Assembly (NCBI GenBank): GCA_044346435.1
Contig: JBIIZE010000001.1
Location: 1 to 26,547, forward strand
Source: Burkholderiales bacterium
GTDB lineage: Bacteria; Pseudomonadota; Gammaproteobacteria; Burkholderiales; SG8-41
Direction: 5' to 3'
Length of the DNA stretch: 26,547 bases
Shown here piece by piece: positions 1 through 24,773 of this stretch; the first letter of the stretch is position 1, and the number at the start of each line of letters is the position of its first letter. The notes below the pieces were generated by a model. It was not told the origin of the DNA, did no database searches, and saw only the letters and a program-made list of their open reading frames with translations. A program made the translations under genes and the position numbers.

Positions 1-1
1 C

Positions 2-739
2 GCCGGCAAGGTCGCGCTGATTACCGGCGGCGCGCGCAATATCGGCCGCGCCATTTCGCGATCACTCGCGGCGGGCGGCGCTAAGGTGATGATCAACGCC
101 AACACTTCGCGCGAAGCCGGCGAGGAAACCGTGGCGATGATCGAGAAGGCCGGCGGCAAGGCCGCGCTGTGCATGGGCGACGTCACCGACCCGGATTCGG
201 TTAAACATCTGGTGGATGAAACCATCAAGCAGTTCGGCCGCATCGACATGGTGGTCAGCAACGCCGCGATCCGCGCCGAAACGCCTTTTGAAAAAATTTC
301 CTTTGAAGAATGGAAGCGTGTGATCTCGACGGTGCTCGACGGCGCCTTCCTGGTATCGCAGGCGGCGCTGCCGCACCTGATCAAGTCGGGTGGCGGCACG
401 CTGATTTACACCGGCGGCCTGACCGGCCACAAAGGTGCCTTGCACCGCTCGCACGTGGTTGCCGCCAAAGGCGGTCTTGCCGCGATGACCAAGGCCGTGG
501 CCAACGACCTCGCTGAATACAACATCACGGTGAACTGCGTGGTGCCGGGGCCGATCGACACCGTGCGCGGCCTGCCCGGTGCGCCGGAGCGCCCGGATTT
601 CCGCAAGACGCTGCCGCTGGTCGGCCGTCGCGGCCAGCCCCAGGAAATCGCGGCGATGGTTCGCATGCTGTGCGGACCCGACGCGCGTTACATCACCGGT
701 CAATCCATTCACGTCAACGGCGGAGTACTGATGCCATGA
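2..739 (+). CDS. SDR-family oxidoreductase (5' partial; atypical active site)
   Basis: The frame is open from position 2 and reads AGKVALITGGARNIGRAIS (Rossmann TGxxxxIG motif), so the true start lies upstream of the window, not at 86. Also shows VVSNAA (NNAG-like), VNCVVPGPIDT and the C-terminal YITGQSIHVNGG. Its stop overlaps the next start (ATGA, 736-739). Confidence 0.92.
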   Translation, partial: AGKVALITGGARNIGRAISRSLAAGGAKVMINANTSREAGEETVAMIEKAGGKAALCMGDVTDPDSVKHLVDETIKQFGRIDMVVSNAAIRAETPFEKISFEEWKRVISTVLDGAFLVSQAALPHLIKSGGGTLIYTGGLTGHKGALHRSHVVAAKGGLAAMTKAVANDLAEYNITVNCVVPGPIDTVRGLPGAPERPDFRKTLPLVGRRGQPQEIAAMVRMLCGPDARYITGQSIHVNGGVLMP

Positions 740-2142
740 GCAAGAAATCGAAAAGCAATTCCAAAACAACCGTGTCGCCGCTGATGAAGACACTGGCCAC
801 CTACATGGCCGGTGCCGCGAAAAAGCCGCTGCCCAAAGCAGTCGCGGAAAAAACCAAGCACCATCTGCTCGACACCATTGCCGCGATGGTTTCCGGTTCG
901 CGTCTGCTGCCGGGTACCAAGGCGATTGCCTATGCCAAAACCCTCGGCGGCGCGCCGCAGGCGCTGGTGATCGGCTCAAAGATCGTCACCAATGCCGAGC
1001 AGGCCGCTCACATCAACGGCATGCTTGCGCACGCCGACGAAACCGATGATTCGCACGCACCGTCGCTGTCGCATCCGGGCTGCGCCATTGTTCCCGCCGC
1101 GATGGCGATGGGCGAACGTGAAAAGACCAACGGCACGCAACTGCTGCGCGCCGTCGCGCTGGGTTATGACCTCTGCGCGCGCATCAATCTGTCGCTGCAT
1201 CCCTATGATTTCCGTCAGGCCGGCCATTCCACGCACAGCTTCGGCCCCAGCTTTGGTGCGGCCGCTGCAGCCTCGCTGCTCGCCGGACTGGATTACAACG
1301 GCATGCGCCATGCGCTGTCGTACACCGCGCAGCAGTGTTCGGGCATTTCCTGCTGGATGCGCGATGAAGAACACATCGAAAAAGCCTTCGACTTCGGCGG
1401 CATGCCCGCACGCAACGGCACCGCGGCGGCATCCATGGTCGCCTCCGGTTTCACCGCGGTGGAAGACGTGTTCTCGGGCGAGCGCAATTTCTATGTCGCC
1501 TATGACGAGACCCGCCGCATCGGCAAGGCACCGCAGCCGCAACGCCTGATCAAGGATCTGGGCAAGGTCTACGAGATCATGAACACCAACATCAAGCGCT
1601 GGTCGGTCGGCTCGCCGATCCAGGCGCCGCTTGACGGCCTGCTCGAACTGATCCGCGACCACGGCATCAAAGCCGCCGACGTCGACAAGCTGGTCATTCG
1701 CGTCGCCCACCAGGCCGCAAACACCACGGACAACCGCAACATGCCCGACATCTGCATGCAGCATATGTGCGCGGTGATGCTGATTGACGGCATCGTCACC
1801 TTCAAGTCCTCGCACGACGAAAAGCGCATGACCGACAAGAAAGTACTCGATCTGCGCAATCGCATTACGCTCTACGGCGACGATGCACTGACCGCAGCGA
1901 TGCCGTCACGCCAGGGCATCCTCGAGCTCAAACTGAAAGACGGCCGCATGCTGCGCAAACACGTCAAGGCGGTGCTTGGCACGGCGCAGAATCCGATGAC
2001 ACGCGCCCAGGTCGACGAGAAGTGTTACCACCTGATGGCGCCGATCCTCGGCGCTTCACGCTCCCGCAAGCTTTGCGATGCGGTGTGGAGTCTCGAAAAA
2101 GTCGGCAACGTCACCAAGCTGCGCACTCTGCTGACGGCCTGA
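736..2142 (+). CDS. MmgE/PrpD family protein (paralog 1)
   Basis: Motifs NGMLAHADETDD-x6-HPGCAIVP and G..QNPM..AQVDEK are typical of the family. Start placed at ATG 736, coupled to the SDR stop, rather than at the ORF-track start of 670. Confidence 0.9.
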   Translation: MSKKSKSNSKTTVSPLMKTLATYMAGAAKKPLPKAVAEKTKHHLLDTIAAMVSGSRLLPGTKAIAYAKTLGGAPQALVIGSKIVTNAEQAAHINGMLAHADETDDSHAPSLSHPGCAIVPAAMAMGEREKTNGTQLLRAVALGYDLCARINLSLHPYDFRQAGHSTHSFGPSFGAAAAASLLAGLDYNGMRHALSYTAQQCSGISCWMRDEEHIEKAFDFGGMPARNGTAAASMVASGFTAVEDVFSGERNFYVAYDETRRIGKAPQPQRLIKDLGKVYEIMNTNIKRWSVGSPIQAPLDGLLELIRDHGIKAADVDKLVIRVAHQAANTTDNRNMPDICMQHMCAVMLIDGIVTFKSSHDEKRMTDKKVLDLRNRITLYGDDALTAAMPSRQGILELKLKDGRMLRKHVKAVLGTAQNPMTRAQVDEKCYHLMAPILGASRSRKLCDAVWSLEKVGNVTKLRTLLTA

Positions 2143-2156
2143 TCGTTTGAAGACCA

Positions 2157-2182
2157 CCCTCTCCTTCTGACGAGGGAGAGGG
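2157..2182. repeat. GC-rich intergenic stem-loop, REP-like (CCCTCTCC...GGAGAGGG)
   Basis: CCCTCTCCTTC-TGAC-GAGGGAGAGGG forms an 11-bp stem with one G.U pair and has no U-tract. It resembles the CCCTCTCCC/GGGAGAGGG extragenic palindromes of Proteobacteria. Confidence 0.5.
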
Positions 2183-2214
2183 AATATGGGACGGTTGGAC
2201 GGGGGAGAACACTG

Positions 2215-3117
2215 ATGTCGTGGACATTCGAGCTGCTGAAAAAGCCGGACGGGCTGCCGATTACCGAAGGCCCGGTGTGGGATGGTGAATACCTGTATTT
2301 CACCCATATTCACGCCAACACGATTTTCCGCTTCGATCCGAAGACCAACGCGATTACGCCGTGGCGCACCGGACTGGACCGCGTCAACGGACTGGCCTTC
2401 GATGCCGAGGGCCGGCTGTTCGGCTGTTGCCAGGGTGGACGCAGCGTGATGCGCTTTGATCCCGACGGCAAAAACGTGGTGATTGCCGACAAATTCGAAG
2501 GCAAGCGCCTCAATACGCCGAACGACCTCGCGATTGATCGCAAGGGCCGCATCTGGTTCACCAATCCCTGGAACGACGGCAACGTCGACAAGACGGAAAA
2601 GCAGGAACTGGAAGACCGTTCGGTTTACCGCCTCGATCCGCAGAAGGACGGCACGTATTCGATCACCCGCGTCGTCTTCGATACTACGCAGCCCAACGGC
2701 ATCCTGGTGTCGCAGGACCAGAGCACGCTGTATGTCGCCGAAAGCAGTTTCACCGCCGGTATCACGCGCGAACTGCGCGCTTACCCGATTCGCGATGACG
2801 GCAGCCTTGGCCCCTACAAGACGCTGTTTACCTGGGGTGAGGACTATCGCGACATCCATCGCGGCATCGACGGCATGACGCTGGATAGGGACGGCAACAT
2901 CGTCGCGACTGCGGGCTGGGAAGTCGCCGGCGCCGGACCGATGATTTATGTGTTCTCGCCGACCGGCCGCGTACTTGAAACACATCCGGTTCCCGCAATC
3001 CGTCCGACCAACTGCTGTTTCGGCGGTCCGGACATGAAAACGCTGTTTGTCACCACCACGCAGGGCCATTTCTTCCGCGCGGAGACCAACCGCACCGGCT
3101 GGGCGATGTATCCCTGA
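2215..3117 (+). CDS. SMP-30/gluconolactonase/LRE family protein (beta-propeller lactonase)
   Basis: Motifs ITEGPVWD, NTPNDLAID.KGRIWFT, PNGILVS.D..TLYVAES, DGMTLD.DGNI and PTNCCFGG. SD GGAG upstream. No signal peptide. Confidence 0.92.
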   Translation: MSWTFELLKKPDGLPITEGPVWDGEYLYFTHIHANTIFRFDPKTNAITPWRTGLDRVNGLAFDAEGRLFGCCQGGRSVMRFDPDGKNVVIADKFEGKRLNTPNDLAIDRKGRIWFTNPWNDGNVDKTEKQELEDRSVYRLDPQKDGTYSITRVVFDTTQPNGILVSQDQSTLYVAESSFTAGITRELRAYPIRDDGSLGPYKTLFTWGEDYRDIHRGIDGMTLDRDGNIVATAGWEVAGAGPMIYVFSPTGRVLETHPVPAIRPTNCCFGGPDMKTLFVTTTQGHFFRAETNRTGWAMYP

Positions 3118-3193
3118 GCCTGAGCGGCCAAAAACCGTGCAAGCGGTTTCATATTTGTTGCATTTTTCCATGATACGGATTCGCCCCGGTGTA

Positions 3194-3222
3194 CTGACTC
3201 ACAGGGCGCCGGGCGGTAAAAT
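3194..3222 (+). promoter_or_regulatory. Putative sigma70 promoter for the acyl-CoA dehydrogenase unit
   Basis: CTGACT (3194-3199), a 17-bp spacer and TAAAAT (3217-3222) lie in a 135-bp intergenic gap. Palindromes AAACCG-N6-CGGTTT (3132-3149) and GGGGTTTCCCC (3224-3234) flank it. Confidence 0.45.
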
Positions 3223-3252
3223 CGGGGTTTCCCCAACCTGCGATTTCAGATC

Positions 3253-4407
3253 ATGGATTTTCACTTTACCCCCGAACAGGAACAGTTCCGCGACGCCGTG
3301 CGCGGATTTGCCGAGCGCCATCTGCGCGACGGTGCGCTGAAGCGCGCGCATCAGGAAGAACATCCCTGGGATGTCGCCAAGCTGATGGCCGAACAGGGCC
3401 TGATGGGCATCACCATGAAGGAAGAAGACGGCGGCCAGGGCGGCTCGCTGATGGACGCGATCATCGCCATCGAAACCATCGCGTCGATCTGCCCGCGCAG
3501 CGCCGACGTGATCCAGGCCGGCAACTTCGGCCCGGTTCGGGTGCTTGCCGAATACGGCACGCCGGACCAGAAAAAACGTTATCTCGACAAGATTCTCGCC
3601 GGTGAATCGGTGATCACCGTCGGCATGACCGAACCGGAAGCGGGTTCGGCCGTCACTGATCTCAAAACCAGCGCAACACCGGACGGCGAGGGTTATCGCA
3701 TCAACGGTGTGAAAGTATTCCAGACGCATGCGTCGTACGCCGACGTGATGTTGACCTATGTGCGTTTCGGTCCCGGCGTCGGCGGCATCGGCTCGGTGCT
3801 GATCCCGCGGGATGCGGAAGGATTCAAGCAAGGCGCACCGTCGAAATTTCTCAACGGTGAAGAGTGGGTGCAGACCTATCTCGACAACGTCTATGTCGGC
3901 CCCGAAAACGTCATGCTGAAAGAAGGCGGCTTCAAGAAGCAGATCGCCGGCTTCAACGTCGAGCGCATCGGCAACACCGCACGTTCGCTGGCTTTCGGCC
4001 GTTACGCCTACAACATCGCCCGCGAATGGGCGCTGCAGCGCAAACAGTTCGGACGCCTGTTGTGCGAATTCCAGGGCCTGCAGTGGAAATTCGCCGACAT
4101 GAAGATGAAGCTCGATGCCGGCCAGTTGCTGCTGTATCGGGCCGCCGTAAATGCCGACAACGGAATTCCCTCGGCCGATGACACCGCGATAGCCAAGGCC
4201 TTCTGCAACCAGGCCGGCTTCGACATCTGCAATGAAGCGATGCAGATCATGGGCGGCATGGGTTATACCGATGAATCGCTGGTGGAATACTGCTTCCGCA
4301 AATGCCGCGGCTGGATGATTGCCGGCGGCTCGATCGAAATTCTGAAAAACCGCATTGCCGAAGGCATTTTCGAGCGCAGCTTCTCACAGCGCCCGCCCAA
4401 GGCCTGA
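3253..4407 (+). CDS. Acyl-CoA dehydrogenase family protein
   Basis: Motifs GMTEPEAGSAV, INGVKVF, R.QFGR.L.EFQGLQW..ADM and AMQIMGGMGY; 384 aa. Confidence 0.95.
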   Translation: MDFHFTPEQEQFRDAVRGFAERHLRDGALKRAHQEEHPWDVAKLMAEQGLMGITMKEEDGGQGGSLMDAIIAIETIASICPRSADVIQAGNFGPVRVLAEYGTPDQKKRYLDKILAGESVITVGMTEPEAGSAVTDLKTSATPDGEGYRINGVKVFQTHASYADVMLTYVRFGPGVGGIGSVLIPRDAEGFKQGAPSKFLNGEEWVQTYLDNVYVGPENVMLKEGGFKKQIAGFNVERIGNTARSLAFGRYAYNIAREWALQRKQFGRLLCEFQGLQWKFADMKMKLDAGQLLLYRAAVNADNGIPSADDTAIAKAFCNQAGFDICNEAMQIMGGMGYTDESLVEYCFRKCRGWMIAGGSIEILKNRIAEGIFERSFSQRPPKA

Positions 4408-4422
4408 TCTGACCGACAACCC

Positions 4423-4452
4423 TGCCGCGCCCCGTGCGCGGCAATTTTTATT
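4423..4452 (+). terminator. Intrinsic terminator-like hairpin
   Basis: TGCCGCGC-CCCGT-GCGCGGCA is a perfect 8-bp stem, followed by ATTTTTATT, 15 bp after the ACAD stop. Confidence 0.5.
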
Positions 4453-4457
4453 GCGCC

Positions 4458-6533
4458 ATGTCCAACAACAAACTCTATCAAGCCGTATTTGATCCCCGCT
4501 CCATCGCGCTGATCGGCGCGTCGAGCGACGAAAAGAAAAACACTTCACGCCCGCAGCGTTATCTCAAGCGCCACGGCTACCAGGGCCAGCTGATTCCGGT
4601 GAACCCGGCACGTGCGGAGATTTTCGGTGACAAGGCTTATCCGGATGTCACCTCCATCCCCGGCGAAGTCGACCATGCTTTTGTGATGGTCCCGGCCAAG
4701 GCTGTGCCGGAAGCGGTGAAGCAATGCGTTGCGAAAAAAATCCCTGTGGTCACGGTGTATAGCGACGGCTTCGCTGAAACCGGCGCGGAAGGTCGCATCA
4801 AGCAGCTGGAACTGAACGAGATCATCCGCGGCAGCAATACGCGGCTTGTCGGCCCCAACTGCATCGGCCTGATGAGCACGCAGACCCATCTCGCGCTGTC
4901 GGTCAACGCCGTGCTGGAAAAACTCGACATCACCCCCGGCGGCCTGGCGATTGTGTCGCAGTCCGGCAGCATGATGGGCGGTCTGATGTCGCGCGGCCTC
5001 GGGCGCGGCGTCGGCTTCTCGAAACTGATTTCAGTCGGCAACGAAGCCGACCTCGGCGTCGGTGAACTGGCCGGTCTGCTGGTCGATGATCCGCATACCG
5101 ACGCGATCCTGCTGTTCATGGAAACCATCCGCGACGCCAAACATCTGGCGGATGCCGCACGCCGCGCCTATGACGCCAACAAGCCGGTGATCGTCTACAA
5201 GCTCGGCCGCTCGGAAGTGGGACAGGACCTCGCCGCTTCACACACCGGCGCGATGGCCGGCACCGATGAAGCGGTGGATGCCTTCTTCAAGGCCCATGCG
5301 ATGCTGCGCGTCGATACGCTGGAAGCGCTGTTCGAACTGCCGGCGCTGGTGAAAGGCCGCAAGCCGAACAAAAAACACCGCGTGGCGGCGATGACCACCA
5401 CCGGCGGCGGAGCCGCCTGCGTGGTCGACCGCATCGGCACCTATGGTGTTGACGTCGTCGGTCCGACCGATGCCCTGGTGGCTGCACTGGCGAAGAACAA
5501 CATCACCATCAACAAGTCGCGCATCACCGACCTGACGCTGGCCGGCGCGAAAAAGGAAATCTACGGCGGCGTGCTCAATGCGCTGCTGGCTTCCGACCAT
5601 TGCGACCTCGTGCTCGCAGTGGCCGGCAGCTCGGCGCAGTTCCAGCCGCAGATCGCCGTCGAACCGCTGGTCGAAGCCGACCGCGGCGACAAGGCGCTGG
5701 CGGTGTTCCTCGCGCCGCATGCCGAAGCTTCGCTGAAACTGCTGGCCAGCGCCGGCGTCGCCGGTTTCCGCACGCCGGAGTCCTGCGCGGATTCGATTCG
5801 CGCCTGGAAACAATGGGTTCCGCCGCTGGCCATTCCGGCAGCCGATGCCAAACGTACGGCGGCAGCCGATGCCTTGCTGAAGGCGGCGCCGGGCAAACAG
5901 CTCAATGAACAACAGGCCTGTGGCGTCTTCGGCGCGCTGGGCGTGCCGCAGGCGCAGACTGCGGTGATGGCCGATGCCGGCGCCAAGGTTGATATCGGTT
6001 ATCCGGTGGTCGCCAAGATTCTGTCTCCGGACATCGCGCACAAAACCGATGCCGGCGGTGTGGTGCTGAACATCGCCGATGCTGTGGCGCTGAAACAGGC
6101 GGCAACCGACATCTTCACCCGCGTCAAAGCCAAACATCCGCAGGCCAAACTGAACGGCATCCTGGTGCAGCGCATGGAGCGCGGCCTTGCCGAAGTGATC
6201 GTCGGTTACAAGCGCGACCCGCAGGTCGGCCCGCTGGTGGTGATCGGGGTCGGCGGCGTCCTCGCCGAGATCTACAAGGATTTTGCGATGCGTCTGGCGC
6301 CGGTCACACCGGAAACCGCGCTGCAGATGATTGAAGAAGTCAAAGGCCTCGCGGTGATCCGCGGTTACCGGGGCATGACCAAAGGCGACTGCAAGGCGCT
6401 GGCGGACGCGGTGGCGGCATTCTCGCAACTGGCCGCCTTCGATGACATCGCCGAAGCTGAAATCAATCCGCTGATCGTCCGCAAAGAAGGCGACGGCGTG
6501 GTGGCGGTGGACGGCTTGATCGTACGCCAATAA
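4458..6533 (+). CDS. Acyl-CoA synthetase (ADP/NDP-forming), fused alpha-beta; acetate-CoA ligase family
   Basis: N-terminal CoA-binding domain (PRSIALIGAS, GPNCIG), SQSG, phospho-His motif ASHTGA, and a C-terminal ATP-grasp region (KILSPDIAHKTDAGGVVL, EAEINPL). Start placed at ATG 4458; no SD is visible. Confidence 0.92.
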   Translation: MSNNKLYQAVFDPRSIALIGASSDEKKNTSRPQRYLKRHGYQGQLIPVNPARAEIFGDKAYPDVTSIPGEVDHAFVMVPAKAVPEAVKQCVAKKIPVVTVYSDGFAETGAEGRIKQLELNEIIRGSNTRLVGPNCIGLMSTQTHLALSVNAVLEKLDITPGGLAIVSQSGSMMGGLMSRGLGRGVGFSKLISVGNEADLGVGELAGLLVDDPHTDAILLFMETIRDAKHLADAARRAYDANKPVIVYKLGRSEVGQDLAASHTGAMAGTDEAVDAFFKAHAMLRVDTLEALFELPALVKGRKPNKKHRVAAMTTTGGGAACVVDRIGTYGVDVVGPTDALVAALAKNNITINKSRITDLTLAGAKKEIYGGVLNALLASDHCDLVLAVAGSSAQFQPQIAVEPLVEADRGDKALAVFLAPHAEASLKLLASAGVAGFRTPESCADSIRAWKQWVPPLAIPAADAKRTAAADALLKAAPGKQLNEQQACGVFGALGVPQAQTAVMADAGAKVDIGYPVVAKILSPDIAHKTDAGGVVLNIADAVALKQAATDIFTRVKAKHPQAKLNGILVQRMERGLAEVIVGYKRDPQVGPLVVIGVGGVLAEIYKDFAMRLAPVTPETALQMIEEVKGLAVIRGYRGMTKGDCKALADAVAAFSQLAAFDDIAEAEINPLIVRKEGDGVVAVDGLIVRQ

Positions 6534-6545
6534 AAGCATTAAGCA

Positions 6546-6567
6546 GCCGGGTCGCCCGCGACCCGGC
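6546..6567. other. Strong GC stem-loop immediately upstream of the redoxin RBS
   Basis: GCCGGGTCGC-CC-GCGACCCGGC is a perfect 10-bp inverted repeat with no U-tract, directly abutting the SD GGAGGAG (6568-6574). Confidence 0.6.
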
Positions 6568-6582
6568 GGAGGAGCGTGACAC

Positions 6583-7101
6583 GTGGCACAAAGTCTGGGC
6601 AACAAACTGGACACGGGAGACCGTTTTCCCGATCTGGATCTGTCGCTGGTCGGCGGCGGGTCACAACGCATTTCGGCGCTGGCCGGTAACGGCTGGAGCG
6701 TCGTGCTCTTGTACCGCGGCGACTGGTGAAGATACTGCCGTCAGCAGTTGGCTGACTACCAGACCTGGCTCCCCGACCTGAAACAGCTCGGCATCACCGT
6801 CATCGCCGCATCCGTGGATATGCCGGAGGCTGCGCTCCAGTCCGTACGCGTGAACAAACTCGCCTTTCCGGTCGCTCACAGCCTGGATTACCAGGAGATC
6901 AGTCGCCGCACTGGCGCGTTCATCGAGCATGAGCGCAAAATCCTGCAAGCCACGGGATTTCTGCTTAAACCCGATCTGACTGTACATGTCGCCACTTATT
7001 CAACCGGCCCCATCGGTCGCCTCACGCCCAACGACGTGAGTTCGATCGTGCGACTGAACCTCGCGAAAACAACAGCACCCCAAGGAGAAAAAACATGTTG
7101 A
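6583..7101 (+). CDS. AhpC/TSA (peroxiredoxin-like) redoxin, probable selenoprotein (Sec49, UxxC)
   Basis: SD GGAGGAG, 8-nt spacer, GTG at 6583. The frame reads MAQSLGNKLDTGDRFPDLDLSLVGGGSQRISALAGNGWSVVLLYRGDW-TGA(6727-6729)-RYCRQQLADYQ and continues in frame with the 6748..7101 ORF. The TGA aligns to the first Cys of the family motif YRGxWCxxC. A SECIS-like hairpin follows. 172 aa if read through. Confidence 0.85.
6735..6762 (+). promoter_or_regulatory. Bacterial SECIS-like element
   Basis: Upper stem GTCAGC/GCTGAC (6740-6745/6751-6756) with apical loop AGTTG (G at loop position 2, followed by U). The loop begins 16 nt after the UGA. Possible lower stem CTG/CAG. Confidence 0.65.
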
Positions 7102-8453
7102 TGGAACAACTCGCCGACTACGCCATCCGCGAACAGACTTCGAAACTGCCGCCGCAGGTGATCCACCACGCCAAACGCGCGGTGATCGACTGGTACGCTG
7201 CGCTGCTGCCGGGCAGCATCGTCAATCCGGCCGTTCTGATGGAAGAAGCGTTTGCCGAGGATCTGGATCGCGGTCGTGCCCGTCTGGCCACCGGCCGTCG
7301 CGCCACCCTGCGCGCCGCCGCGCTGATCAACGGTGCGGCTTCGCACTCGGTCGAGTTTGATGACATCTACCGCGATGCCGGTTACCACCCGGGCAGCCCG
7401 ACGATTTCGGCGGCGCTGGCCGCGGCACAGGCGTCCGGTGCCTCTGGTGACCGTTTCCTGCGCGGCGTCATCGTCGGCTATGAAATCTCCACGCGTATCG
7501 GCGAAGCGGTGATGCCTTCGCATTACAAGTATTGGCACACCACCGGCACCGTCGGCGCTTTCGGCGCGGCCGCTGCAGCAGCCACCATCCTCGGCGCCAA
7601 CAAGGAACAGTTCATGCACGCGATGGCAACGGTCGGCAGTTTTGCTTCCGGCCTGCAGCAGGCCTTCCGTTCGCAGGCGATGACCAAGCCGCTGCATGGC
7701 GGTCACGCTGCGGACGCCGGCTGCTGGGCGGCAATGGCGGCAATGAAGGGCCTCACCGGCGCGCTCGACATGCTCGAAGGCGAAGTCGGTTTCGGCAATG
7801 CGATGAGCGTGAATCCGGACTGGAGCAAGGCCACAAAGGGACTGGGCGTGGATTACCACATCAACCAGATGACCTTCAAAAACCACGGCTGCTGCGGCCA
7901 TACCTTCCCGTCGATTGACGGCGCGCTGCATCTGCAAAATCAGCACGGCTTCACCCACAAGGATGTGAAACACATCAAGCTGCACACCTACAAGGCCGGA
8001 CTCAACATCATCGACAACAACAATCCCGAAGGCGAGTACCAGGCCAAGTTCAGCATCCAGTACACGGTTGCCCACGCGCTGGTGCGCGGCAGCGTGCGAC
8101 TCAATGCTTTCGATCCCGATCACCTCAGTGATCCCGACGTGCGCGCGCTGCTGAAAAAGATCGAGCCGATCGCCGACCCCGAGATTTCCGCGGGTTATCC
8201 GAACCGCCGCGAATCACGGGTGGAAATCGAATTGAACGACGGTCGCAAGTTCGAACACTTCCAGCCCTATCGCAAGGGTGATCCGGAGCTGCCGCTGACC
8301 GACGATGAGCTGAACGGCAAGTTCACCGAACTCGCCGAGCCGGTGATCGGCAAGGCCGCTGCAGCCTCGCTGCTGAAACAGCTGTGGGATACCGAAAAGC
8401 TGGCCAACGTCGATTACGACACCGGCAGCGGATCGAAGCGCGCTGCGGGCTGA
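7095..8453 (+). CDS. MmgE/PrpD family protein (paralog 2)
   Basis: Motifs NGAASHSVEFDD-x6-HPG, WHTTGTVG, KPLHGGHAA, FKNHGCCGH, AKFSIQY and KGDPELPL. SD AGGAG at 7083-7087. The start overlaps the redoxin stop by 7 nt. Confidence 0.92.
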   Translation: MLMEQLADYAIREQTSKLPPQVIHHAKRAVIDWYAALLPGSIVNPAVLMEEAFAEDLDRGRARLATGRRATLRAAALINGAASHSVEFDDIYRDAGYHPGSPTISAALAAAQASGASGDRFLRGVIVGYEISTRIGEAVMPSHYKYWHTTGTVGAFGAAAAAATILGANKEQFMHAMATVGSFASGLQQAFRSQAMTKPLHGGHAADAGCWAAMAAMKGLTGALDMLEGEVGFGNAMSVNPDWSKATKGLGVDYHINQMTFKNHGCCGHTFPSIDGALHLQNQHGFTHKDVKHIKLHTYKAGLNIIDNNNPEGEYQAKFSIQYTVAHALVRGSVRLNAFDPDHLSDPDVRALLKKIEPIADPEISAGYPNRRESRVEIELNDGRKFEHFQPYRKGDPELPLTDDELNGKFTELAEPVIGKAAAASLLKQLWDTEKLANVDYDTGSGSKRAAG

Positions 8454-8490
8454 TATTCGCGATCACTCAAAACACGCCGGAGGAGCGCCC

Positions 8491-9453
8491 ATGAAAAAAA
8501 CCCTGATGCTGCTGACGCTTGCCGCGATGGTTTCACCGGCAGGGGCAGCAGAATCGTTTCCGGTGCGCCCGATCCGCGTCATCGTGCCCTATGCGCCCGG
8601 CGGCAATGTCGACATTTCGGCACGCATCATCGCGCCGCCGCTGGGTGAAGCTCTCGGACAGACCGTCGTGGTGGACAACCGTCCGGGCGCCGGTGGCAAT
8701 CTTGGCGCTTCATTGGTGGCCAAAGCCACGCCCGACGGTTACACACTGCTCGTCGGATCGAGCGGTCCGCTGTCAGTGAATCCGGTGATTTTCAAAAGCC
8801 TGCCCTATGACACGTTGAAGGATTTCGCGCCGGTCTCGACCGTGCAGGCGGTGCCTCTGGTTGTGCTCGCCGGGCCGAAATCGAATATCAATTCGATTGC
8901 CGACATCATTGCCGCCGCCAAGGCGCGTCCGGGCAAGCTGACAATGGCTTCGGCCGGCGCCGGCACCACCAATCATTTCGCGATTGAACTGTTCGCGCAC
9001 ATGGCCAATGTGAAACTGCTGCATGTGCCGTACAAAGGCAGCGGTCCTGCGCTGTCGGAGCTGCTCGGCGGACAGGTTGAAACCATGATCGATCAACTGG
9101 CGGCCTCCATCGGTTATGTACGCGACGGCCGTCTCAAGGTACTGGCAGTGACCACGCAACAACGTGCGGCAGCGCTGCCGAATGTACCGACACTGGAAGA
9201 ACTGGGTTACAAGGGTTATCAGGCAGCGACACTGCTGGGCCTGCTGGCCCCCGCCGGCACACCCAAACCGGTCGTGGCAAAACTCAATGCCGGCGTACGC
9301 AAGATCATGGAAAACAATGCTGTGGCGGAACGTTTCCGCGGGCTCGGCGCCAACCCCGGCGCGAGTTCTCCCGAGGAGTTCACCACCCGCATCCGCGATG
9401 AACTGGAACAGTGGCGGACGCTGGTCAAACAGCTCAACCTGAAATTCGAATAA
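8491..9453 (+). CDS. Bug/TctC family tripartite tricarboxylate transporter substrate-binding protein
   Basis: Signal peptide; motifs PIRVIVPYAPGGNVD, VVDNRPGAGG, PDGYTLL and HVPYKGSGPA. SD GGAGGAG. Confidence 0.95.
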   Translation: MKKTLMLLTLAAMVSPAGAAESFPVRPIRVIVPYAPGGNVDISARIIAPPLGEALGQTVVVDNRPGAGGNLGASLVAKATPDGYTLLVGSSGPLSVNPVIFKSLPYDTLKDFAPVSTVQAVPLVVLAGPKSNINSIADIIAAAKARPGKLTMASAGAGTTNHFAIELFAHMANVKLLHVPYKGSGPALSELLGGQVETMIDQLAASIGYVRDGRLKVLAVTTQQRAAALPNVPTLEELGYKGYQAATLLGLLAPAGTPKPVVAKLNAGVRKIMENNAVAERFRGLGANPGASSPEEFTTRIRDELEQWRTLVKQLNLKFE

Positions 9454-9471
9454 CCGTTTGAGGAATCCCTG

Positions 9472-10377
9472 ATGAGCAAGATTATCCTGCGTCAAACTGC
9501 AAAGCTGCGCGAGCTGCTGGCGCGCCCCGGCTGTATCGTCGCCCCCGGCGTCGCCGACGCCTTCGGTGCGCGACTGGTAAAGATGGAAGGTTTTGATGCG
9601 GTGTACATGACCGGCTTCGGCACCAGCCTGACGCGGCTGGGCATGCCCGACGTCGGCCTGCTCACCGCAACCGAGATGATCGACAACGCCAGCCGCATCG
9701 CCGAAGCCTCGGAGCTGCCGGTCATCGCCGACGCTGACACCGGTTACGGCAATCCGATCAACACGCGACGCACCATCCGCGATTACGAAAAAGCCGGTGT
9801 CGCCGGCGTGCACCTTGAAGACCAGGCCTGGCCCAAACGCTGCGGCCACCTCGCCGGCAAACGCGTGATCCCGACCGCGGAAATGGTCGCCAAGATCAAG
9901 GCGGCTTGCGATGCACGGCGCGACGATGATTTCGTCATCATCACCCGCACCGACGCGATTGCCATTGAAGGCCTGGATGCCGCACTGGAGCGCGGTGAAC
10001 GTTACCGTGAAGCCGGCGCCGACGTGCTGTTCATCGAAGCGCCGGTGGGGCGCGAGCAGGTCGAGATCGTATCGAAACGCTTCAAGGGCGTGCCGTTGCT
10101 CTACAACATGGCCGCCAGCGGCAAGACGCCGGATCTGCCTGCGGACGAACTCGCCAAGCTGGGCTTCAAACTGGCGATTTATCCGAACTGGATGCTGCTG
10201 GCCGCAATCCCGGCGATGCAGAACCTGCTGCGCGAACTGAAAAAGACCGGCTCCATCGCCCATATGCGCGACAAGGTCGCGAACTTCAAACAGTTCACCG
10301 ACATCGCCGGCCTGCCCGAAATCCAGGAACTCGAAAACCGCTACGGCCTGCCTGAAGACCAGCGCGCCGGGCTCTGA
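9472..10377 (+). CDS. Isocitrate lyase/PEP mutase family protein (C-C lyase type: methylisocitrate/dimethylmalate lyase- or oxaloacetate hydrolase-like)
   Basis: Motifs YMTGFG, PVIADADTGYG, HLEDQ..PKRCGHLAGK and ITRTDA. SD GAGG. Confidence 0.92.
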   Translation: MSKIILRQTAKLRELLARPGCIVAPGVADAFGARLVKMEGFDAVYMTGFGTSLTRLGMPDVGLLTATEMIDNASRIAEASELPVIADADTGYGNPINTRRTIRDYEKAGVAGVHLEDQAWPKRCGHLAGKRVIPTAEMVAKIKAACDARRDDDFVIITRTDAIAIEGLDAALERGERYREAGADVLFIEAPVGREQVEIVSKRFKGVPLLYNMAASGKTPDLPADELAKLGFKLAIYPNWMLLAAIPAMQNLLRELKKTGSIAHMRDKVANFKQFTDIAGLPEIQELENRYGLPEDQRAGL

Positions 10378-10387
10378 TGCACGTGGC

Positions 10388-12145
10388 ATGACGTTCACCG
10401 CGCGGCGCTTTTCCCTGCTGGCCGTCGCGGCCGCGCTGTGGGCTGCGTCGAGCCTGCCCTTGCAGGCGCAGACCGACCGGCCCTCACAGCCGGAACCGGC
10501 CGGCAGCCGCAGCGAGAAACAACTCGCGCACGCCTCGCGTTACATGGTTGCTGCCGCGCATCCGCTCGCGGTGGATGCAGGCCTGCAAATGCTTGAGGCC
10601 GGCGGCACGGCTGTAGATGCCATGATTGCGGTGCAACTGGTGCTGAACCTGGTTGAACCGCATGCCTCGGGGCTGGGCGGCGGCGCTTTCCTGCTGCACT
10701 TTGATGCACGCACCCGCGATGTGCGCGCTTACGACGGCCGCGAAACCGCACCCGCTGCGGCATCACCTGAATTGTTCTTGCGTGACGGCAGCCCCATGGC
10801 CTTCCGCGATGCCGTCAGCGGCGGTCGCTCGGTGGGCACGCCGGGTGTTGCCCGCCTGCTTGAAACCGCACATCGCAAACACGGCCGCTTGCCCTGGGCT
10901 TCCCTGTTTCAGCCTGCGATCGCGCTCGCCGAAAATGGATTTCCGCTGTCTGCGCGTGTACATACCTTGCTGCTGCGCGACCGTGCCATCGTTGGCGAGG
11001 CCGCAGCCCGCAACTATTTCCTGCAGACGGATGGAAGCCCCAAACCCGCCGGCACCCTGCTGCGCAATCCTGAATTCGCGCGCACGCTGCGTGCGATTGC
11101 AGCCGGCGGCGCCGATGTGTTCTATCGTGGTGACATCGCCCGCGCGATGGTCACGGCGGTGCGCGGCCATGCCGCCAATCCCGGCCTGTTGAGTGAAGCC
11201 GATCTTGCCGCGTATCAAATACGGGAGGTCGACGCACTGTGCGGACCGTACCGCGCCTACCGCATCTGCGGCATGCCACCGTCGTCATCCGGCGGCATCG
11301 CCGTGCTGCAGATGCTGGGCCTGCTGTCGGCACAGAATCTGTCTGGCGTTAAACCCGGTTCCACGCAGGCGGTTCATCTGCTGGCCGAGGCGGGACGCCT
11401 TGCCTATGCCGACCGTAACCGCTGGGTGGCCGATGATCGTTTTGTCGAAGTACCGGTGCGCGGCCTGCTCGACCCGGCGTATCTCGCAGCGCGGGCGCGG
11501 CTGATTCAGCCCGACCGTTCCATGGGCAGGGCTGAAGCAGGCCGGCCGCCGGGCGCTGCGCTGGTCTATGCCGATGATCCGGTCGAGGAAGTCGCCGGCA
11601 CCAGCCATGTCGCCATTGTCGACGGCGACGGCAATGCGGTATCGCTGACCACGACCATCGAAAACTTTTTCGGCAGCCGGATCATGGTCGGCGGTTTTCT
11701 GCTGAACAACCAGCTCACCGACTTCAATTTCAATCCGGTCGAATCAGGGCGGCCTGTGGCCAATGCGGTGGCGCCGGGCAAACGGCCACGCAGCTCGATG
11801 GCGCCGACACTGGTGTTCCGCGACAACGGCGAGCTGCATCTGGTGCTGGGTTCGCCGGGCGGCAGCCGGATCATCAATTACGTGGCGAAGACGCTGATTG
11901 CAACCCTGGACTGGAATCTCGACATTCAGGCGGCAATCGCCCTGCCGAACACCGGTAGTCGCAACGGTCCGACGGAAATCGAGCGCGGCACCGAAGCCGA
12001 AACGCTGGCGGCGCCGCTGCGTGCCATGGGACACATCGTGGAAATTTCCGACATGACCAGCGGTCTGCACGGCATCATGCGGGATGGCAAGGGTTGGCAG
12101 GGCGGCGCAGATCCGCGCCGCGAAGGTATCGCGAAGGGACGGTAA
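10388..12145 (+). CDS. ggt: Gamma-glutamyltransferase (periplasmic, Ntn hydrolase)
   Basis: Signal peptide; motifs GGTAVDA, EPHASGLGGG, DGRETAP, autocleavage Thr in TSHVAIVD, TTTIE..FGS, NNQLTDF, KRPRSSMAPT and GSPGGSRI. Confidence 0.95.
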   Translation: MTFTARRFSLLAVAAALWAASSLPLQAQTDRPSQPEPAGSRSEKQLAHASRYMVAAAHPLAVDAGLQMLEAGGTAVDAMIAVQLVLNLVEPHASGLGGGAFLLHFDARTRDVRAYDGRETAPAAASPELFLRDGSPMAFRDAVSGGRSVGTPGVARLLETAHRKHGRLPWASLFQPAIALAENGFPLSARVHTLLLRDRAIVGEAAARNYFLQTDGSPKPAGTLLRNPEFARTLRAIAAGGADVFYRGDIARAMVTAVRGHAANPGLLSEADLAAYQIREVDALCGPYRAYRICGMPPSSSGGIAVLQMLGLLSAQNLSGVKPGSTQAVHLLAEAGRLAYADRNRWVADDRFVEVPVRGLLDPAYLAARARLIQPDRSMGRAEAGRPPGAALVYADDPVEEVAGTSHVAIVDGDGNAVSLTTTIENFFGSRIMVGGFLLNNQLTDFNFNPVESGRPVANAVAPGKRPRSSMAPTLVFRDNGELHLVLGSPGGSRIINYVAKTLIATLDWNLDIQAAIALPNTGSRNGPTEIERGTEAETLAAPLRAMGHIVEISDMTSGLHGIMRDGKGWQGGADPRREGIAKGR

Positions 12146-12175
12146 CACTGAAATGCATGACATGAGGACACTGCA

Positions 12176-13588
12176 ATGGCATTGACGATGTTCGACAAAA
12201 TCTGGAACAGCCACGTCATCCTGGAAAAACCGGGTGGCGACGCGCTGCTGCACATCGACCGCAACTTTGTGCACGAAGGCTCCTTCCATGCCTTCGGCGC
12301 GCTGGCCAAGGAAGGCCGCAAGGTGCGCAAGCCGCGGCAGAACTTCGCCGTGGCCGATCACTATGTGCCGACCGTCGGCCGCGAACGCGGTGTCGAAGCC
12401 GCAGAAGATGCCGATGCGCGCAACATGATCCGGCTGCTCGAGGAAAACTGCCGCGTCAACGACATCGCCCATTACGGCATTGACGACGAACGCCAGGGCA
12501 TCGTTCATGTCATCGGCCCGGAACTCGGCCTCACCCAGCCCGGACTGACCATCACCTGCGGCGATTCGCACACCTCGACACACGGCGCGCTGGGCGCTTA
12601 CGCCTTCGGCACCGGGGCATCGCAGCTGAAACAGATTCTCGCGACGCAGTGCCTGTGGCTGAAGCGGCCGAAAACCCTGCGTATCGTCGTCAACGGCCGG
12701 CTCGCGCCGGGCGTCACCGGCAAGGATGTGGTGCTGGCGATCATCGCAAAAATCGGCACTGCCGGCGCCACCGGCCATGTCATCGAATTCGCGGGATCGG
12801 CGATCAGCAGCCTGACGGTCGAAGGCCGGCTGACCGTGTGCAACATGGCGATCGAAGCCGGCGGTCGCGCCGGCATGATCGCGCCCGATGACAAGGTCTA
12901 TGAATATCTGCACGGCCGCGAGTTCTCGCCCAAGGGCGCTGATTGGGACCGCGCGCTGGCGCAATGGCGCACCCTGCCCTCGGATGACGGCGCACGCTTC
13001 GACCGCGAAGTCACGCTCGACGGCGCCAAACTCGAACCGATGCTGACCTGGGGCACCAGCCCCGAGGAAGCACTGCCGGTCAGCGGCCGCATTCCCGATC
13101 CGAAATCGCTGGGGGACGCCAACCAGCGCGCACACGCCGAGCAGGCGCTGGCCTATATGGACTTGAAGCCCGGCATGGCACTGACCGACATCAAGATCGA
13201 TCGCGCCTTCATCGGCAGCTGCACCAATGGCCGCATTGAAGACCTGCGCGCCGCCGCCGCGGTGCTCAAAGGCCGCAAAGCGGTCATTCAAGCCTGGGTG
13301 TCTCCGGGTTCCACCGCGCTGAAACGCCAGGCCGAGGCCGAAGGTCTGGACAAGATCTTCCTCGATGCCGGTGTCGAATGGCGCGCCTCCGGCTGCTCCA
13401 GCTGTGCGGCAATGAACGGCGACAAGGTGCCGCCGGGCATGCGCAGTGCATCGACATCCAACCGCAATTTCGAAGGCCGCCAAGGCAAGGGCGCGCGCAC
13501 CCACCTGATGAGCCCGGCGATGACGGCGGCCGCCATCGTCACCGGCCGCGTCACCGACGTACGCACGCTTGCCGCGGGGAAACATTGA
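12176..13588 (+). CDS. leuC: 3-isopropylmalate dehydratase large subunit-like (divergent LeuC paralog; aconitase family 4Fe-4S hydratase)
   Basis: Motifs GIVHVIGPE, CGDSHTSTHG, FIGSCTNGRIEDLR, GCSSCAAMN and STSNRNFEGRQG. Three cluster Cys are present. Probably not the biosynthetic copy (see findings). Confidence 0.88.
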   Translation: MALTMFDKIWNSHVILEKPGGDALLHIDRNFVHEGSFHAFGALAKEGRKVRKPRQNFAVADHYVPTVGRERGVEAAEDADARNMIRLLEENCRVNDIAHYGIDDERQGIVHVIGPELGLTQPGLTITCGDSHTSTHGALGAYAFGTGASQLKQILATQCLWLKRPKTLRIVVNGRLAPGVTGKDVVLAIIAKIGTAGATGHVIEFAGSAISSLTVEGRLTVCNMAIEAGGRAGMIAPDDKVYEYLHGREFSPKGADWDRALAQWRTLPSDDGARFDREVTLDGAKLEPMLTWGTSPEEALPVSGRIPDPKSLGDANQRAHAEQALAYMDLKPGMALTDIKIDRAFIGSCTNGRIEDLRAAAAVLKGRKAVIQAWVSPGSTALKRQAEAEGLDKIFLDAGVEWRASGCSSCAAMNGDKVPPGMRSASTSNRNFEGRQGKGARTHLMSPAMTAAAIVTGRVTDVRTLAAGKH

Positions 13589-13656
13589 ATCCTTCTTGAA
13601 GAATGACAAAAACATGCCTCTGACGAGGCTGTCATATTTTTGGAAAATTGACTCTC

Positions 13657-14271
13657 ATGAAACCGTTCACCACACTGACCGCCGTCGCCGCCCCCATCGA
13701 AATGGCGAATATCGACACCGACCGCGTGATCCCCGTGCGTTTCCTACGCAAGCTGCGCAGCGACAAGGCGGGTTACGACCCTTATCTGTTCCATGACATG
13801 CGTTTTGACAACGATGGCAAGGAAAAACCGGACTTCATACTCAACCAGCCGGCCTACCGCAAGGCCGGTATCCTCGTCGCCGGCGCCAATTTCGGCTGCG
13901 GCTCTTCGCGCGAAGGCGCGGTGTACGCGCTGCTCGACTACGGCATCCGCGCGGTGATTGCCCCGTCTTTCGGCGACATTCATTACGCCAACGAGCTGCA
14001 GAACGGCATGCTGCCGGTGATCCTGCCCGAGGAAATCTGCCGCGGGCTGCGCGACCAGCTGCGCGCCAAACCCGGCGCCACGCTGGCGATCGACCTGCCC
14101 GCACAAACCGTCATCGACACCGAGGGTACTGCCCACCCCTTTACCATCGACCCGGTCTACAAGGAACGCCTGCTCAAAGGTCTGGACGACATTGGCCTGG
14201 TGCTGGAAAACAAGCCGGCCATCGAAAGCTTCGAGCACGATTACCACGCCCAGCGGCCCTGGCTGGCCTGA
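13657..14271 (+). CDS. leuD: 3-isopropylmalate dehydratase small subunit-like (divergent LeuD paralog)
   Basis: Motifs NIDTD..IP..FL, NFGCGSSRE, IAPSFGDI...N...NG.LP and L.GLDDIGL. Start placed at ATG 13657. Confidence 0.88.
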   Translation: MKPFTTLTAVAAPIEMANIDTDRVIPVRFLRKLRSDKAGYDPYLFHDMRFDNDGKEKPDFILNQPAYRKAGILVAGANFGCGSSREGAVYALLDYGIRAVIAPSFGDIHYANELQNGMLPVILPEEICRGLRDQLRAKPGATLAIDLPAQTVIDTEGTAHPFTIDPVYKERLLKGLDDIGLVLENKPAIESFEHDYHAQRPWLA

Positions 14272-17642: not shown

Positions 17643-17754
17643 TGAATGGACTTTCATGGTCGGTAGGCCGTTTTGCACTGCGGCTGAGCGTCGCATGGTA
17701 GCAAAGAGCGGGTAAAATCTCCCTCCCGCGTCGTTGCCATTCCCTGATCCGTCC

Positions 17755-18753: not shown

Positions 18754-18770
18754 TAAGTTCGGAGGAAATG

Positions 18771-19739: not shown

Positions 19740-19768
19740 GCTCTCTAATTGATACCGGAGGAATACCC

Positions 19769-20749: not shown

Positions 20750-20784
20750 GCGCATTTACGAATCAATTTGACCAAGGAATCTTC

Positions 20785-21561: not shown

Positions 21562-22015
21562 CGCTGCGTCATCCGGCGAACGACGGCCGCTTCCCCTGGC
21601 TGTCGTCCTGCTGTTCGGCCCCGCTTTTTTCGCCATGGGCCTGCTGGTGGCCGGTTTGCTGACCGGACATGTGCCGGCCAAACCGGACGCTTTGCGTGTG
21701 CCGGCCGCCGTGCTGTGGCTGACGGCCATCCTGTTCTGCAGTGGCGGGCTGGGCCTGATGCTGTCGCGCTGGCTGCCGAAACCGGCGGTATTCTGCGGCG
21801 TGATCGGCTTCTGCTTTTTTGTGGGCATCTTCAACTGGATCGCCTTCGGCCCCGGCGAGCGCGAGTTCACGCGCGGCAAATCGGGATCGGTGGGGGCGCC
21901 CGTTTCGGAAAGCGAAGGCCGGCTGGTGTTCGGCCTGTTCGCCGGCGCACTTGATGCCCTGATTCTCTATGGCATTTACCGCAGCCTGAAACACCGCAAC
22001 GGTAACAAAGCATGA
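21548..22015 (+). CDS. Hypothetical integral membrane protein (about 4 TM)
   Basis: Four hydrophobic segments and a WIAFGPGER..GR..FG pattern. The stop is coupled (ATGA) to the next gene. Start uncertain (TTG 21548 or ATG 21635). Confidence 0.7.
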   Translation: MSASNAASSGERRPLPLAVVLLFGPAFFAMGLLVAGLLTGHVPAKPDALRVPAAVLWLTAILFCSGGLGLMLSRWLPKPAVFCGVIGFCFFVGIFNWIAFGPGEREFTRGKSGSVGAPVSESEGRLVFGLFAGALDALILYGIYRSLKHRNGNKA

Positions 22016-24751: not shown

Positions 24752-24773
24752 CGGGATTGATGTCAGCTGACCG

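Follow-up and report, generated by a model that had tools for sequence, protein, structure and literature searches.

We analyzed a 26.5-kb stretch of DNA (positions 1 to 26,547; hereafter, the window) that makes up an entire contig (C370; JBIIZE010000001.1) of a 2.46-Mb metagenome-assembled genome (G000), about 75% complete, from an uncultured freshwater Burkholderiales bacterium with related genomes from lake and groundwater. Its first 14,271 nucleotides hold a conserved gene cluster that we read, with moderate confidence, as a composite operon for the catabolism of a branched (2-substituted), succinate-type dicarboxylate. Two reusable modules would together epimerize, activate, desaturate, release, hydrate, and cleave this substrate, our best guess for which is methyl-, ethyl-, or isopropylsuccinate or a similar acid. 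Module A comprises an MmgE/PrpD-family protein (P2), a fused ADP-forming (NDP-forming) acyl-CoA synthetase (LIG), and an acyl-CoA dehydrogenase (ACAD), and module B pairs a C-C lyase of the isocitrate lyase (ICL)/PEP mutase superfamily (LY) with a LeuCD-like hydratase. A second MmgE/PrpD-family protein (P1) lies upstream of both. No published description of the cluster was found in the literature searched, and the cluster matches no characterized route.

Pfam and NCBIfam searches confirmed 12 plus-strand genes, each with strong family matches, at or near their originally predicted positions. The spacers between them range from overlaps to 72 bp, save for one gap of 135 bp (3118-3252), and neither prpC nor acnD/prpF is present in the window, again as predicted. 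Because the window is the whole contig, the 5' end of the cluster is missing from it. The 135-bp spacer contains a terminator-like hairpin (3132-3149) and the sole sigma-70-like site in 16.6 kb (3194-3222), which is why the three genes upstream of it and the nine from ACAD to LeuD probably form two transcription units. 

Relatives were sampled in three ways: (i) regions of 10 relatives, (ii) 78 loci obtained by scanning species-representative genomes for P2, and (iii) 31 loci from 400 genomes sampled evenly across the order. All loci were compared by tblastn; the first two sets were also processed with a gene caller based on codon-usage log-odds, trained on the window, followed by clustering. 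This caller replaced greedy longest-open-reading-frame (ORF) calling, which picked antisense shadow ORFs in the GC-rich DNA and was dropped.

The MmgE/PrpD proteins

MmgE/PrpD proteins occur in about one-fifth of prokaryotic species, mostly without an assigned function, and act on free 1,4-dicarboxylates that bear a substituent at C2 or C3 (PMC12290011). Within this family, the epimerase methylsuccinate isomerase (Msi) uses a two-base mechanism with His and Tyr, and its catalytic and binding residues in Pseudomonas aeruginosa numbering are His88, Glu91, His102, Tyr148, His152, Lys202, and Lys266 (PMC12290011). From an annotated record, we retrieved the reference cluster of P. aeruginosa (MaoC hydratase, ACAD, VOC, MmgE/PrpD, CoA-transferase, and CoA-ester lyase); the residues and numbering of its MmgE/PrpD protein match the published ones exactly (PMC12290011).

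The best characterized relative of P2 (7095-8453) is P. aeruginosa Msi (35% identity, 209 bits), followed by IDS epimerase (157 bits), its nearest relative of solved structure, and true PrpD (1SZQ) scores 35 bits. P2 also misses the PrpD equivalog cutoffs, with 42 bits versus 458 (TIGR02330) and 49 bits versus 575 (NF006943). The window P2 retains all seven Msi residues (H E H Y H K K), as do the five orthologs and three homologs from cultured bacteria that were aligned. P2 is thus predicted to be a two-base epimerase of a 2-substituted succinate. It is not the Msi ortholog, as the genome encodes a closer counterpart of P. aeruginosa Msi (65% identity) in another gene, on contig C427. The Msi gene always adjoins the gene for (RS)-methylsuccinyl-C4-CoA dehydrogenase (Mcd) (PMC12290011). 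The neighbor of P2 is not Mcd either: the ACAD beside it shares 28% identity with P. aeruginosa Mcd, which finds its best match in the genome on contig C181 (45%).

P1 (736-2142; Pfam MmgE_PrpD_N and _C) likely starts at ATG 736, which is preceded by GGAG and overlaps the stop codon of the upstream gene as ATGA. Its closest solved structure is again IDS epimerase (97 bits); true PrpD (1SZQ), TIGR02330, and NF006943 are unmatched, and NF042438 scores 44 bits against a cutoff of 950. In the window copy and four aligned orthologs, P1 keeps the residues of the carboxylate-binding set (H/E/H/H/K/K) and has Phe at the position of Msi Tyr148. Owing to this Phe, we infer a one-base reaction for P1, which may be dehydration, decarboxylation, or double-bond migration/isomerization.

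Two loci in another Burkholderiales family (L147 and L150, in genomes G303 and G377) have a P2 ortholog (54 to 55%) after which, in place of ACAD, come a MaoC gene resembling itaconyl-CoA hydratase (Ich; 40% identity to the P. aeruginosa enzyme) and a gene for a family III CoA-transferase. Both P2 matches contain one in-frame TGA.

Module A

An active acyl-CoA dehydrogenase carries its catalytic glutamate at the YEG position or at the position typical of isovaleryl-CoA dehydrogenase (IVD), and an "AGG" variant is listed for sulfinopropionyl-CoA desulfinase (PMC8360864). ACAD (3253-4407; Pfam ACAD N, M, and C domains) has no YEG glutamate ("IAGGS") and carries a Glu at the IVD-type base position ("FNVER"). 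This Glu is conserved in the six orthologs, three cultured homologs, and one paralog aligned, and P. aeruginosa Mcd shows the same layout ("LNAER", no YEG). The nearest NCBIfam model is that of 3-sulfinopropanoyl-CoA desulfinase (NF042439), an enzyme whose substrate is an analog of succinyl-CoA; ACAD matches this model with 259 bits versus a cutoff of 600. Where the desulfinase 5AF7 has Gln ("NAQR"), the window protein has Glu ("NVER"), and it has Asp in the Arg84 column; Gln246 and Arg84 are the residues that Schurmann et al. reportedly put forward in 2015 as markers of 3-sulfinopropionyl-CoA desulfinase. Since its Glu is at the IVD-type position, as in Mcd, we read ACAD as an active dehydrogenase; it is predicted to act on a succinyl-CoA-like (substituted-succinyl-CoA) thioester and to be neither Mcd nor the desulfinase. 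ACAD is highly conserved, with 78 to 100% identity across the family of the window's genome and 61 to 78% in other families and on plasmids.

LIG (4434-6533; Pfam CoA_binding_2, Succ_CoA_lig, and ATP-grasp_5) has as its best solved relatives the ADP-forming thaumarchaeal 4-hydroxybutyrate-CoA and 3-hydroxypropionate-CoA ligases, and it adjoins P2 in most related loci. P2, LIG, and ACAD occur together in 15 of the 31 order-wide loci, with ACAD identities of 66 to 86%. The two trio-holding loci from the window's family have the order ACAD-LIG-P2, whereas the other 13, all from other Burkholderiales families, have the order P2-LIG-(TctC or CoA-transferase)-ACAD; in these 13, identity to the window proteins is about 50% for P2 and LIG and 66 to 78% for ACAD. 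Module A is a mobile unit, and the survival of its linkage through this reshuffling argues for a shared function. Many relatives have a family III CoA-transferase gene flanked by P2 and LY or by LIG and ACAD, which fits the release of a free unsaturated acid.

The trio is also found on plasmids of two cultured bacteria. Its companions in Comamonas endophytica are genes for a LysR regulator, TctC, and an alpha/beta hydrolase; those in Acinetobacter sp. LoGeW2-3 are genes for a LysR regulator, an MFS transporter, a second ACAD, a FadB-like enzyme, a thioesterase, a 3-oxoadipyl-CoA-thiolase-like protein, and ETF-QO. P2-LIG pairs exist in Cupriavidus metallidurans CH34, whose unannotated record was read by tblastn and Pfam, as was that of Rhizobium rhizoryzae (see below), and in genome G037. 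The G037 pair first appeared as a 1085-amino-acid open frame, but a P2-ligase fusion was rejected: the two ORFs overlap by 4 nt (ATGA) and are translationally coupled.

Module B

The best solved relatives of LY (9472-10377) are petal death protein (1ZLP; 223 bits), 2,3-dimethylmalate lyase (3FA3; 204 bits), and methylisocitrate lyases (at most 195 bits), the margins being small. In the ICL/PEP mutase family, the gating-loop motif K-[KR]-C-G-H holds the catalytic Cys, and the "KRCGH" of LY is aligned to the "KKCGH" of petal death protein. LY scores below the methylisocitrate lyase cutoff (TIGR02317, 280 bits versus 354), and a canonical PrpB (431 bits) is encoded elsewhere in the genome, on contig C359. 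From these matches, LY is predicted to be an alkylmalate lyase.

The LeuC-like large subunit (12176-13588) scores 645 bits on TIGR00170 (cutoff, 560) versus 767 bits for the leuC on contig C39, and the LeuD-like small subunit (13648-14271; Pfam Aconitase_C) scores 202 bits on TIGR00171 (cutoff, 116) versus 274 bits for the housekeeping copy. The housekeeping leuC lies with leuD, leuB, and asd on C39, and the window copies are 56% (LeuC) and 42% (LeuD) identical to that set; several further LeuC paralogs (55 to 59% identity) are present in the congeners searched. The window LeuCD is thus a nonhousekeeping paralog rather than the leucine pathway copy of the genome. By NCBIfam scores, it is much closer to isopropylmalate isomerase than to tricarboxylate-handling aconitases.

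Homologs of LeuC (60%), LeuD (44%), and LY (60%) also occur together in Rhizobium rhizoryzae, in a cluster that further includes genes for a Liv-type ABC importer, a flavocytochrome c/TcuA-like FAD dehydrogenase, an Asp/Glu-racemase-family (maleate isomerase-like) protein, and a divergent PrpD-like protein. Haladaptatus halobius, too, has a PrpD-like gene and TcuA next to an LY-like gene. These independent clusters suggest one theme, in which a substituted succinate is converted to a substituted fumarate or maleate and then to a substituted malate that is cleaved. The Rhizobium cluster would do so without CoA, and the window's family would carry out the first step through CoA, with LIG and ACAD.

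Conservation of the cluster

The gene order recurs in dozens of species-level genomes, a synteny that is far beyond chance. P1, ACAD, LIG, P2, LY, and the LeuCD-like hydratase form the conserved core of the 78 related loci, LY and the LeuC-like subunit being core in the window's family. Within that family, the order P1-ACAD-LIG-P2-(TctC or CoA-transferase)-LY-LeuC-LeuD is kept from 100% to about 66 to 70% P2 identity while the other genes turn over; P1 is present in 37 loci, down to 67 to 70% P2 identity. In more distant loci, a family III CoA-transferase gene takes the place of TctC between P2 and LY.

Gene insertions at the junctions vary among genomes and include extra TctC genes, a Fic gene, an RpiR/MBL/phosphatase/MgtC block, and a small ORF-TctC-GGT cassette (GGT, gamma-glutamyltransferase). 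At the position of the 135-bp spacer, relatives have a TctC or Fic-domain gene inserted. Upstream of the cluster, relatives have a TctC gene and, in many loci, the divergent genes purE-purK-purC.

The cluster thus defines a well-conserved MmgE/PrpD subfamily, P2, with fixed partners, namely, an ADP-forming ligase and a highly conserved ACAD, and in one lineage this trio is linked to a hydratase-lyase pair.

Proposed pathway

From the gene families, conserved residues, synteny, and modularity described above, we infer the reactions, their order, and the substrate. (i) P2 would interconvert the enantiomers of the free acid by a His/Tyr two-base enolate mechanism, as in Msi. (ii) LIG would then form the CoA thioester, which (iii) ACAD would desaturate to a substituted fumaryl- or maleyl-CoA. 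(iv) CoA would be recovered and the unsaturated diacid freed, by a family III CoA-transferase in distant relatives and perhaps by a reversible LIG in the window's genus. (v) P1 would supply a dehydration or a cis/trans or delta double-bond isomerization. (vi) The LeuCD-like hydratase would add water to the alkylmaleate to give an alkylmalate, and (vii) LY would cleave this alkylmalate in a retro-aldol reaction to a 2-oxo acid (pyruvate or glyoxylate) and a short carboxylate. In the window's genus, the two accessory enzymes flanking P1, an oxidoreductase and a lactonase, may channel a precursor, either a lactone or a hydroxy compound, into the pathway.

Several lines of evidence support this pathway and leave us about evenly divided between accepting and doubting it: the synteny of the core, the Msi residues of P2, the Mcd-like glutamate of ACAD, the reshuffled trio, the family III CoA-transferase of many relatives, the grouping of LY with alkylmalate lyases, the nonhousekeeping LeuCD, and the CoA-free analogs in Rhizobium and Haladaptatus. 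If true, it would be a second, mechanistically different way of using branched dicarboxylates, it would assign functions to several large groups of "family proteins," and it would help explain the food sources of freshwater Burkholderiales very rich in Bug proteins. The trio homologs on the plasmids of cultured Comamonas and Acinetobacter make the hypothesis directly testable.

A bolder version, which we consider rather unlikely, is an aerobic "CoA-shuttle" pathway for alkyl-substituted succinates, in which the Msi-like epimerase and the ADP-forming ligase would place the acid on CoA for the ACAD step alone, CoA would then be recovered with conservation of energy, the Tyr-less P1 would be a new double-bond isomerase/dehydratase, and the recruited LeuCD and alkylmalate lyase would finish the route, giving pyruvate or glyoxylate and a short acid. 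Possible sources are methyl-, ethyl-, and isopropylsuccinate, fumarate addition metabolites leaking from anoxic hydrocarbon degradation, and terpene-derived acids and lactones. If true, such a route would be leucine/citramalate chain elongation in reverse.

Several points weigh against the proposed pathway. The activities of the cluster enzymes are predictions, and sequence alone names no substrate for them. The cluster in the window's genus has no thioesterase or CoA-transferase gene, and CoA release there rests on the assumed reversibility of LIG. An ACAD would normally yield a trans product, whereas LeuCD-type enzymes use cis-alkylmaleates, and the isomerase role of P1 is a guess. The cluster also has no linked regulator. 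Part of the synteny is plain chromosomal collinearity, given the conserved purE-purK-purC upstream. Finally, because most other families have module A without module B, the two modules could serve different substrates and be neighbors in the window's family alone.

Comparison with known systems

The cluster draws on known enzyme families and is a new variation on branched-dicarboxylate catabolism. Among its closest counterparts is the itaconate/methylsuccinate cluster of P. aeruginosa (six genes, with PA0879 and PA0881) and Cupriavidus necator, which encodes Msi, Mcd, Ict, Ich, and Ccl (PMC12290011, PMC9875883). Both have an epimerase-type MmgE/PrpD protein beside an ACAD and a CoA-activating enzyme, with the seven Msi residues and the glutamate placement of Mcd in common; distant relatives of the window also have a family III CoA-transferase, and C. 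necator likewise belongs to the betaproteobacterial lineage and has TctC nearby. The window differs in the low identities of P2 and ACAD to Msi and Mcd and its separate Msi ortholog (see above), in activation by an ADP-forming ligase, and in a second MmgE/PrpD protein without the Tyr base. It has no linked Ich or Ccl and would instead use a LeuCD-type hydratase and an ICL-family lyase on free acids.

The pairing of a LeuCD-family hydratase with an ICL/PEP mutase-family lyase resembles that of dimethylmaleate hydratase (DmdAB) with 2,3-dimethylmalate lyase, by which Eubacterium barkeri ferments nicotinate. The best solved relatives of LY include that lyase as well as petal death protein, a 2-alkylmalate lyase from plants. 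However, the window has no other nicotinate pathway genes, its organism looks aerobic, the ACAD being ETF linked, and the window LeuCD, likened to DmdAB by family, is of the bacterial LeuC/LeuD type. Dehydrogenases of the TcuA (tricarballylate) and soluble fumarate reductase types likewise turn a substituted succinate into an unsaturated acid, which can then be hydrated by an enzyme of the aconitase family; in Haladaptatus and Rhizobium, TcuA-like genes have LY-like and PrpD-like genes as neighbors. Instead of a free-acid flavoenzyme of this kind, the window has a CoA-dependent ligase and an ACAD. A report on isoprene in Variovorax was set aside as a parallel, as it mentions a standard methylcitrate cluster and nothing more (PMC9804861).

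These comparisons bear out part of the original prediction. An organic acid cluster without a known route is supported, and the neighborhood comparison that had been suggested as a check found it syntenic in relatives; the analogy to dimethylmaleate hydratase and 2,3-dimethylmalate lyase holds as well. The parallel drawn to the methylcitrate cycle does not, with both MmgE/PrpD proteins grouping with IDS epimerase and Msi far from true PrpD (35 bits or no match to 1SZQ), and neither does the suggested sulfur-linked substrate, such as a glutathione conjugate (see below).

Alternative explanations

The strongest alternative, to which we give some credence but clearly less than to the proposed pathway, is a mosaic of independent Bug-linked modules (oxidoreductase-P1-lactonase, ACAD-LIG-P2, and LY-LeuCD) with one substrate each, brought together by the packing of TctC-bearing cassettes into collinear regions in this lineage. 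The genome is unusually dense in PrpD-family enzymes and in orphan receptors of tripartite tricarboxylate transporters (TTT), with at least 139 tblastn matches to the TctC queries from the window and 13 MmgE/PrpD matches, and paralogous cassettes exist on contigs C319 (LIG-TctC-PrpD-EtfBA) and C272 (lactonases and a P1-like gene). Most other families have module A on its own, the 135-bp spacer carries terminator-like and promoter-like sites, relatives have genes inserted between modules, and the purEKC collinearity extends upstream. Contiguity argues the other way: from ACAD to LeuD, gaps are at most 59 bp or are overlaps, and this stretch stays contiguous from 100% to about 70% P2 identity despite the turnover of its neighbors. 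Moreover, the combination of an LY-type lyase with a PrpD-like gene and a succinate-type dehydrogenase recurs in the independent Rhizobium and Haladaptatus clusters.

It is also conceivable, but improbable, that the steps run in the reverse order. A tricarboxylate or alkyl(iso)citrate would enter via the TTT system, LeuCD would isomerize it, and LY would cleave it to a 2-oxo acid and a chiral substituted succinate, which P2, LIG, and ACAD would process before enzymes encoded elsewhere take over. ICL-family lyases do release succinate-type products, TctC is nominally a tricarboxylate receptor, and module A alone is a complete small operon in other families; Ich-like hydratases elsewhere in the genome (46% and 42% identical to P. 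aeruginosa Ich) could take the enoyl-CoA onward. This order would, however, need further unlinked enzymes to finish the pathway. LY is nearer to alkylmalate lyases than to (methyl)isocitrate lyases, LeuCD is much nearer to isopropylmalate isomerase than to the tricarboxylate aconitases, and a CoA-transferase between P2 and LY fits free-acid release better.

Very little probability remains for an organosulfur or glutathione conjugate route like that for 3-sulfinopropionate, in which LIG would activate the substrate, ACAD would be an ACAD-fold desulfinase followed by methylcitrate-type enzymes, and GGT and a selenoredoxin, both encoded in the window, would handle the sulfur moiety. The resemblance is to the 3-sulfinopropionate module of Advenella mimigardefordensis (SucCD or Act plus Acd), where activation by a succinyl-CoA synthetase-superfamily enzyme also precedes an ACAD-fold enzyme with "AGG" (PMC8360864) and where the 3,3'-dithiodipropionate (DTDP) cluster joins a CoA-transferase, Acd, a peroxidase-like (AhpD-like) protein, TctC genes, and methylcitrate genes (PMC5373536); the desulfinase is also the best NCBIfam model of ACAD. 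Yet ACAD scores far below the cutoff of that model and lacks both marker residues, and no dioxygenase (such as 3-mercaptopropionate dioxygenase) or PrpC is linked, PrpB being encoded elsewhere. GGT is periplasmic, and most orthologous clusters have neither GGT nor the redoxin.

Least probable of all, and largely refuted, is a variant methylcitrate cycle (PrpC-PrpD-Acn-PrpB) for propionyl-CoA with a PrpD-like dehydratase, LeuCD as 2-methylaconitate hydratase, and LY as 2-methylisocitrate lyase: it shares the families, the dehydrate-rehydrate-cleave logic, and 280 bits of LY on the prpB model, but both PrpD-like proteins are remote from PrpD and of the epimerase type, LY is below the prpB cutoff in a genome with a 431-bit PrpB on C359, and a PrpC-type synthase, not linked to the cluster here, is found above the cutoff elsewhere in four near-complete congeners, the incomplete G000 having a weak citrate synthase match alone.

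Accessory genes

The first gene (2-739) encodes a short-chain dehydrogenase/reductase (SDR; Pfam adh_short_C2, 187 bits) and is truncated at its 5' end by the contig start. It is present in 21 of the 78 loci and is accessory or semiconserved. The SMP-30/gluconolactonase-type lactonase (SGL; 2215-3117; Pfam SGL, 160 bits), whose solved relatives are gluconolactonases, was seen solely at P2 identities of at least 81% and is accessory. An association of P1-type proteins with lactone-hydrolyzing enzymes seems to recur on contig C272 (L124), where a P1 paralog (54%) lies near genes for an SMP-30 lactonase, Amidohydro_2, an alpha/beta (dienelactone-type) hydrolase, a GFO/IDH/MocA oxidoreductase, several TctC proteins, and an AMP-binding ligase.

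Between LIG and P2 lies the gene for an AhpC/TSA-like redoxin (Prx; 6583-7101) with a UxxC motif, where U is selenocysteine (Sec) encoded by an in-frame TGA (6727-6729). Read from GTG 6583 through this TGA, the ORF matches AhpC-TSA with 61.8 bits over profile positions 2 to 121 of 124; the downstream ORF alone gives 22 bits to AhpC/TSA. Orthologs were found in 18 of the 78 loci, with TGA in 17 and TGC (Cys) in 1, and a tRNA-Sec is present on contig C374. By these features, the redoxin appears to be a genuine member of a Sec/Cys pair family that is optional to the cluster. The tRNA-Sec (C374:1623-1717, anticodon TCA) lies immediately upstream of another MmgE/PrpD paralog.

GGT (10388-12145; TIGR00066, 408 bits versus a cutoff of 358) has a signal peptide-like N terminus and occurs in 16 of the 78 loci, all with at least 86% P2 identity and often alongside an extra TctC gene. 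As a predicted periplasmic protein, it should be unable to act on cytoplasmic CoA esters, and its signal peptide and sporadic occurrence place it outside the conserved pathway, as an accessory insertion. With GGT secreted and both GGT and the redoxin outside the conserved core, the glutathione conjugate idea is unsupported; the absence of the reported desulfinase marker residues from ACAD points the same way.

The TctC/Bug periplasmic solute-binding protein (8491-9453; Pfam TctC, 262 bits) is encoded by a gene that varies in number and position among relatives. Its closest solved structure is Bug27, and TphC, BugD, and others score similarly; these PDB matches give no clue to its ligand.

Surrounding genes and paralogous cassettes

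A strong GC-rich hairpin (4423-4443; 8 bp, 7 of them G-C) with a T-run behind it lies between ACAD and LIG and overlaps the annotated GTG start of LIG. It may be an internal attenuator or an mRNA stability element, or LIG may start slightly further downstream.

The ligase-PrpD pairing is seen again in the paralogous cassette on contig C319 (L123:581-6948), which encodes an ADP-forming ligase (51% identical to LIG), TctC, an MmgE/PrpD paralog, and its own electron-transfer flavoprotein (EtfB and EtfA).

Downstream of the cluster, the block at 16506-22911 contains a divergent, minus-strand M20 peptidase gene and genes for a D-2-hydroxyacid dehydrogenase, two TctC proteins, an enoyl-CoA hydratase, and an EamA exporter. 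In distant relatives, this block directly follows LeuD or P2-CoA-transferase, without the intervening CorA and HI0933-like genes. It may thus be functionally linked to the cluster, and its hydratase could act on the ACAD product. The remaining minus-strand genes (22975-26322) are unrelated neighbors: a 177-amino-acid ORF without a family match (22975-23508), an LpxR-like outer membrane lipid A deacylase (23609-24664), an MliC-like lysozyme inhibitor (24774-25130), and a mandelate racemase/enolase-superfamily enzyme (25207-26322).

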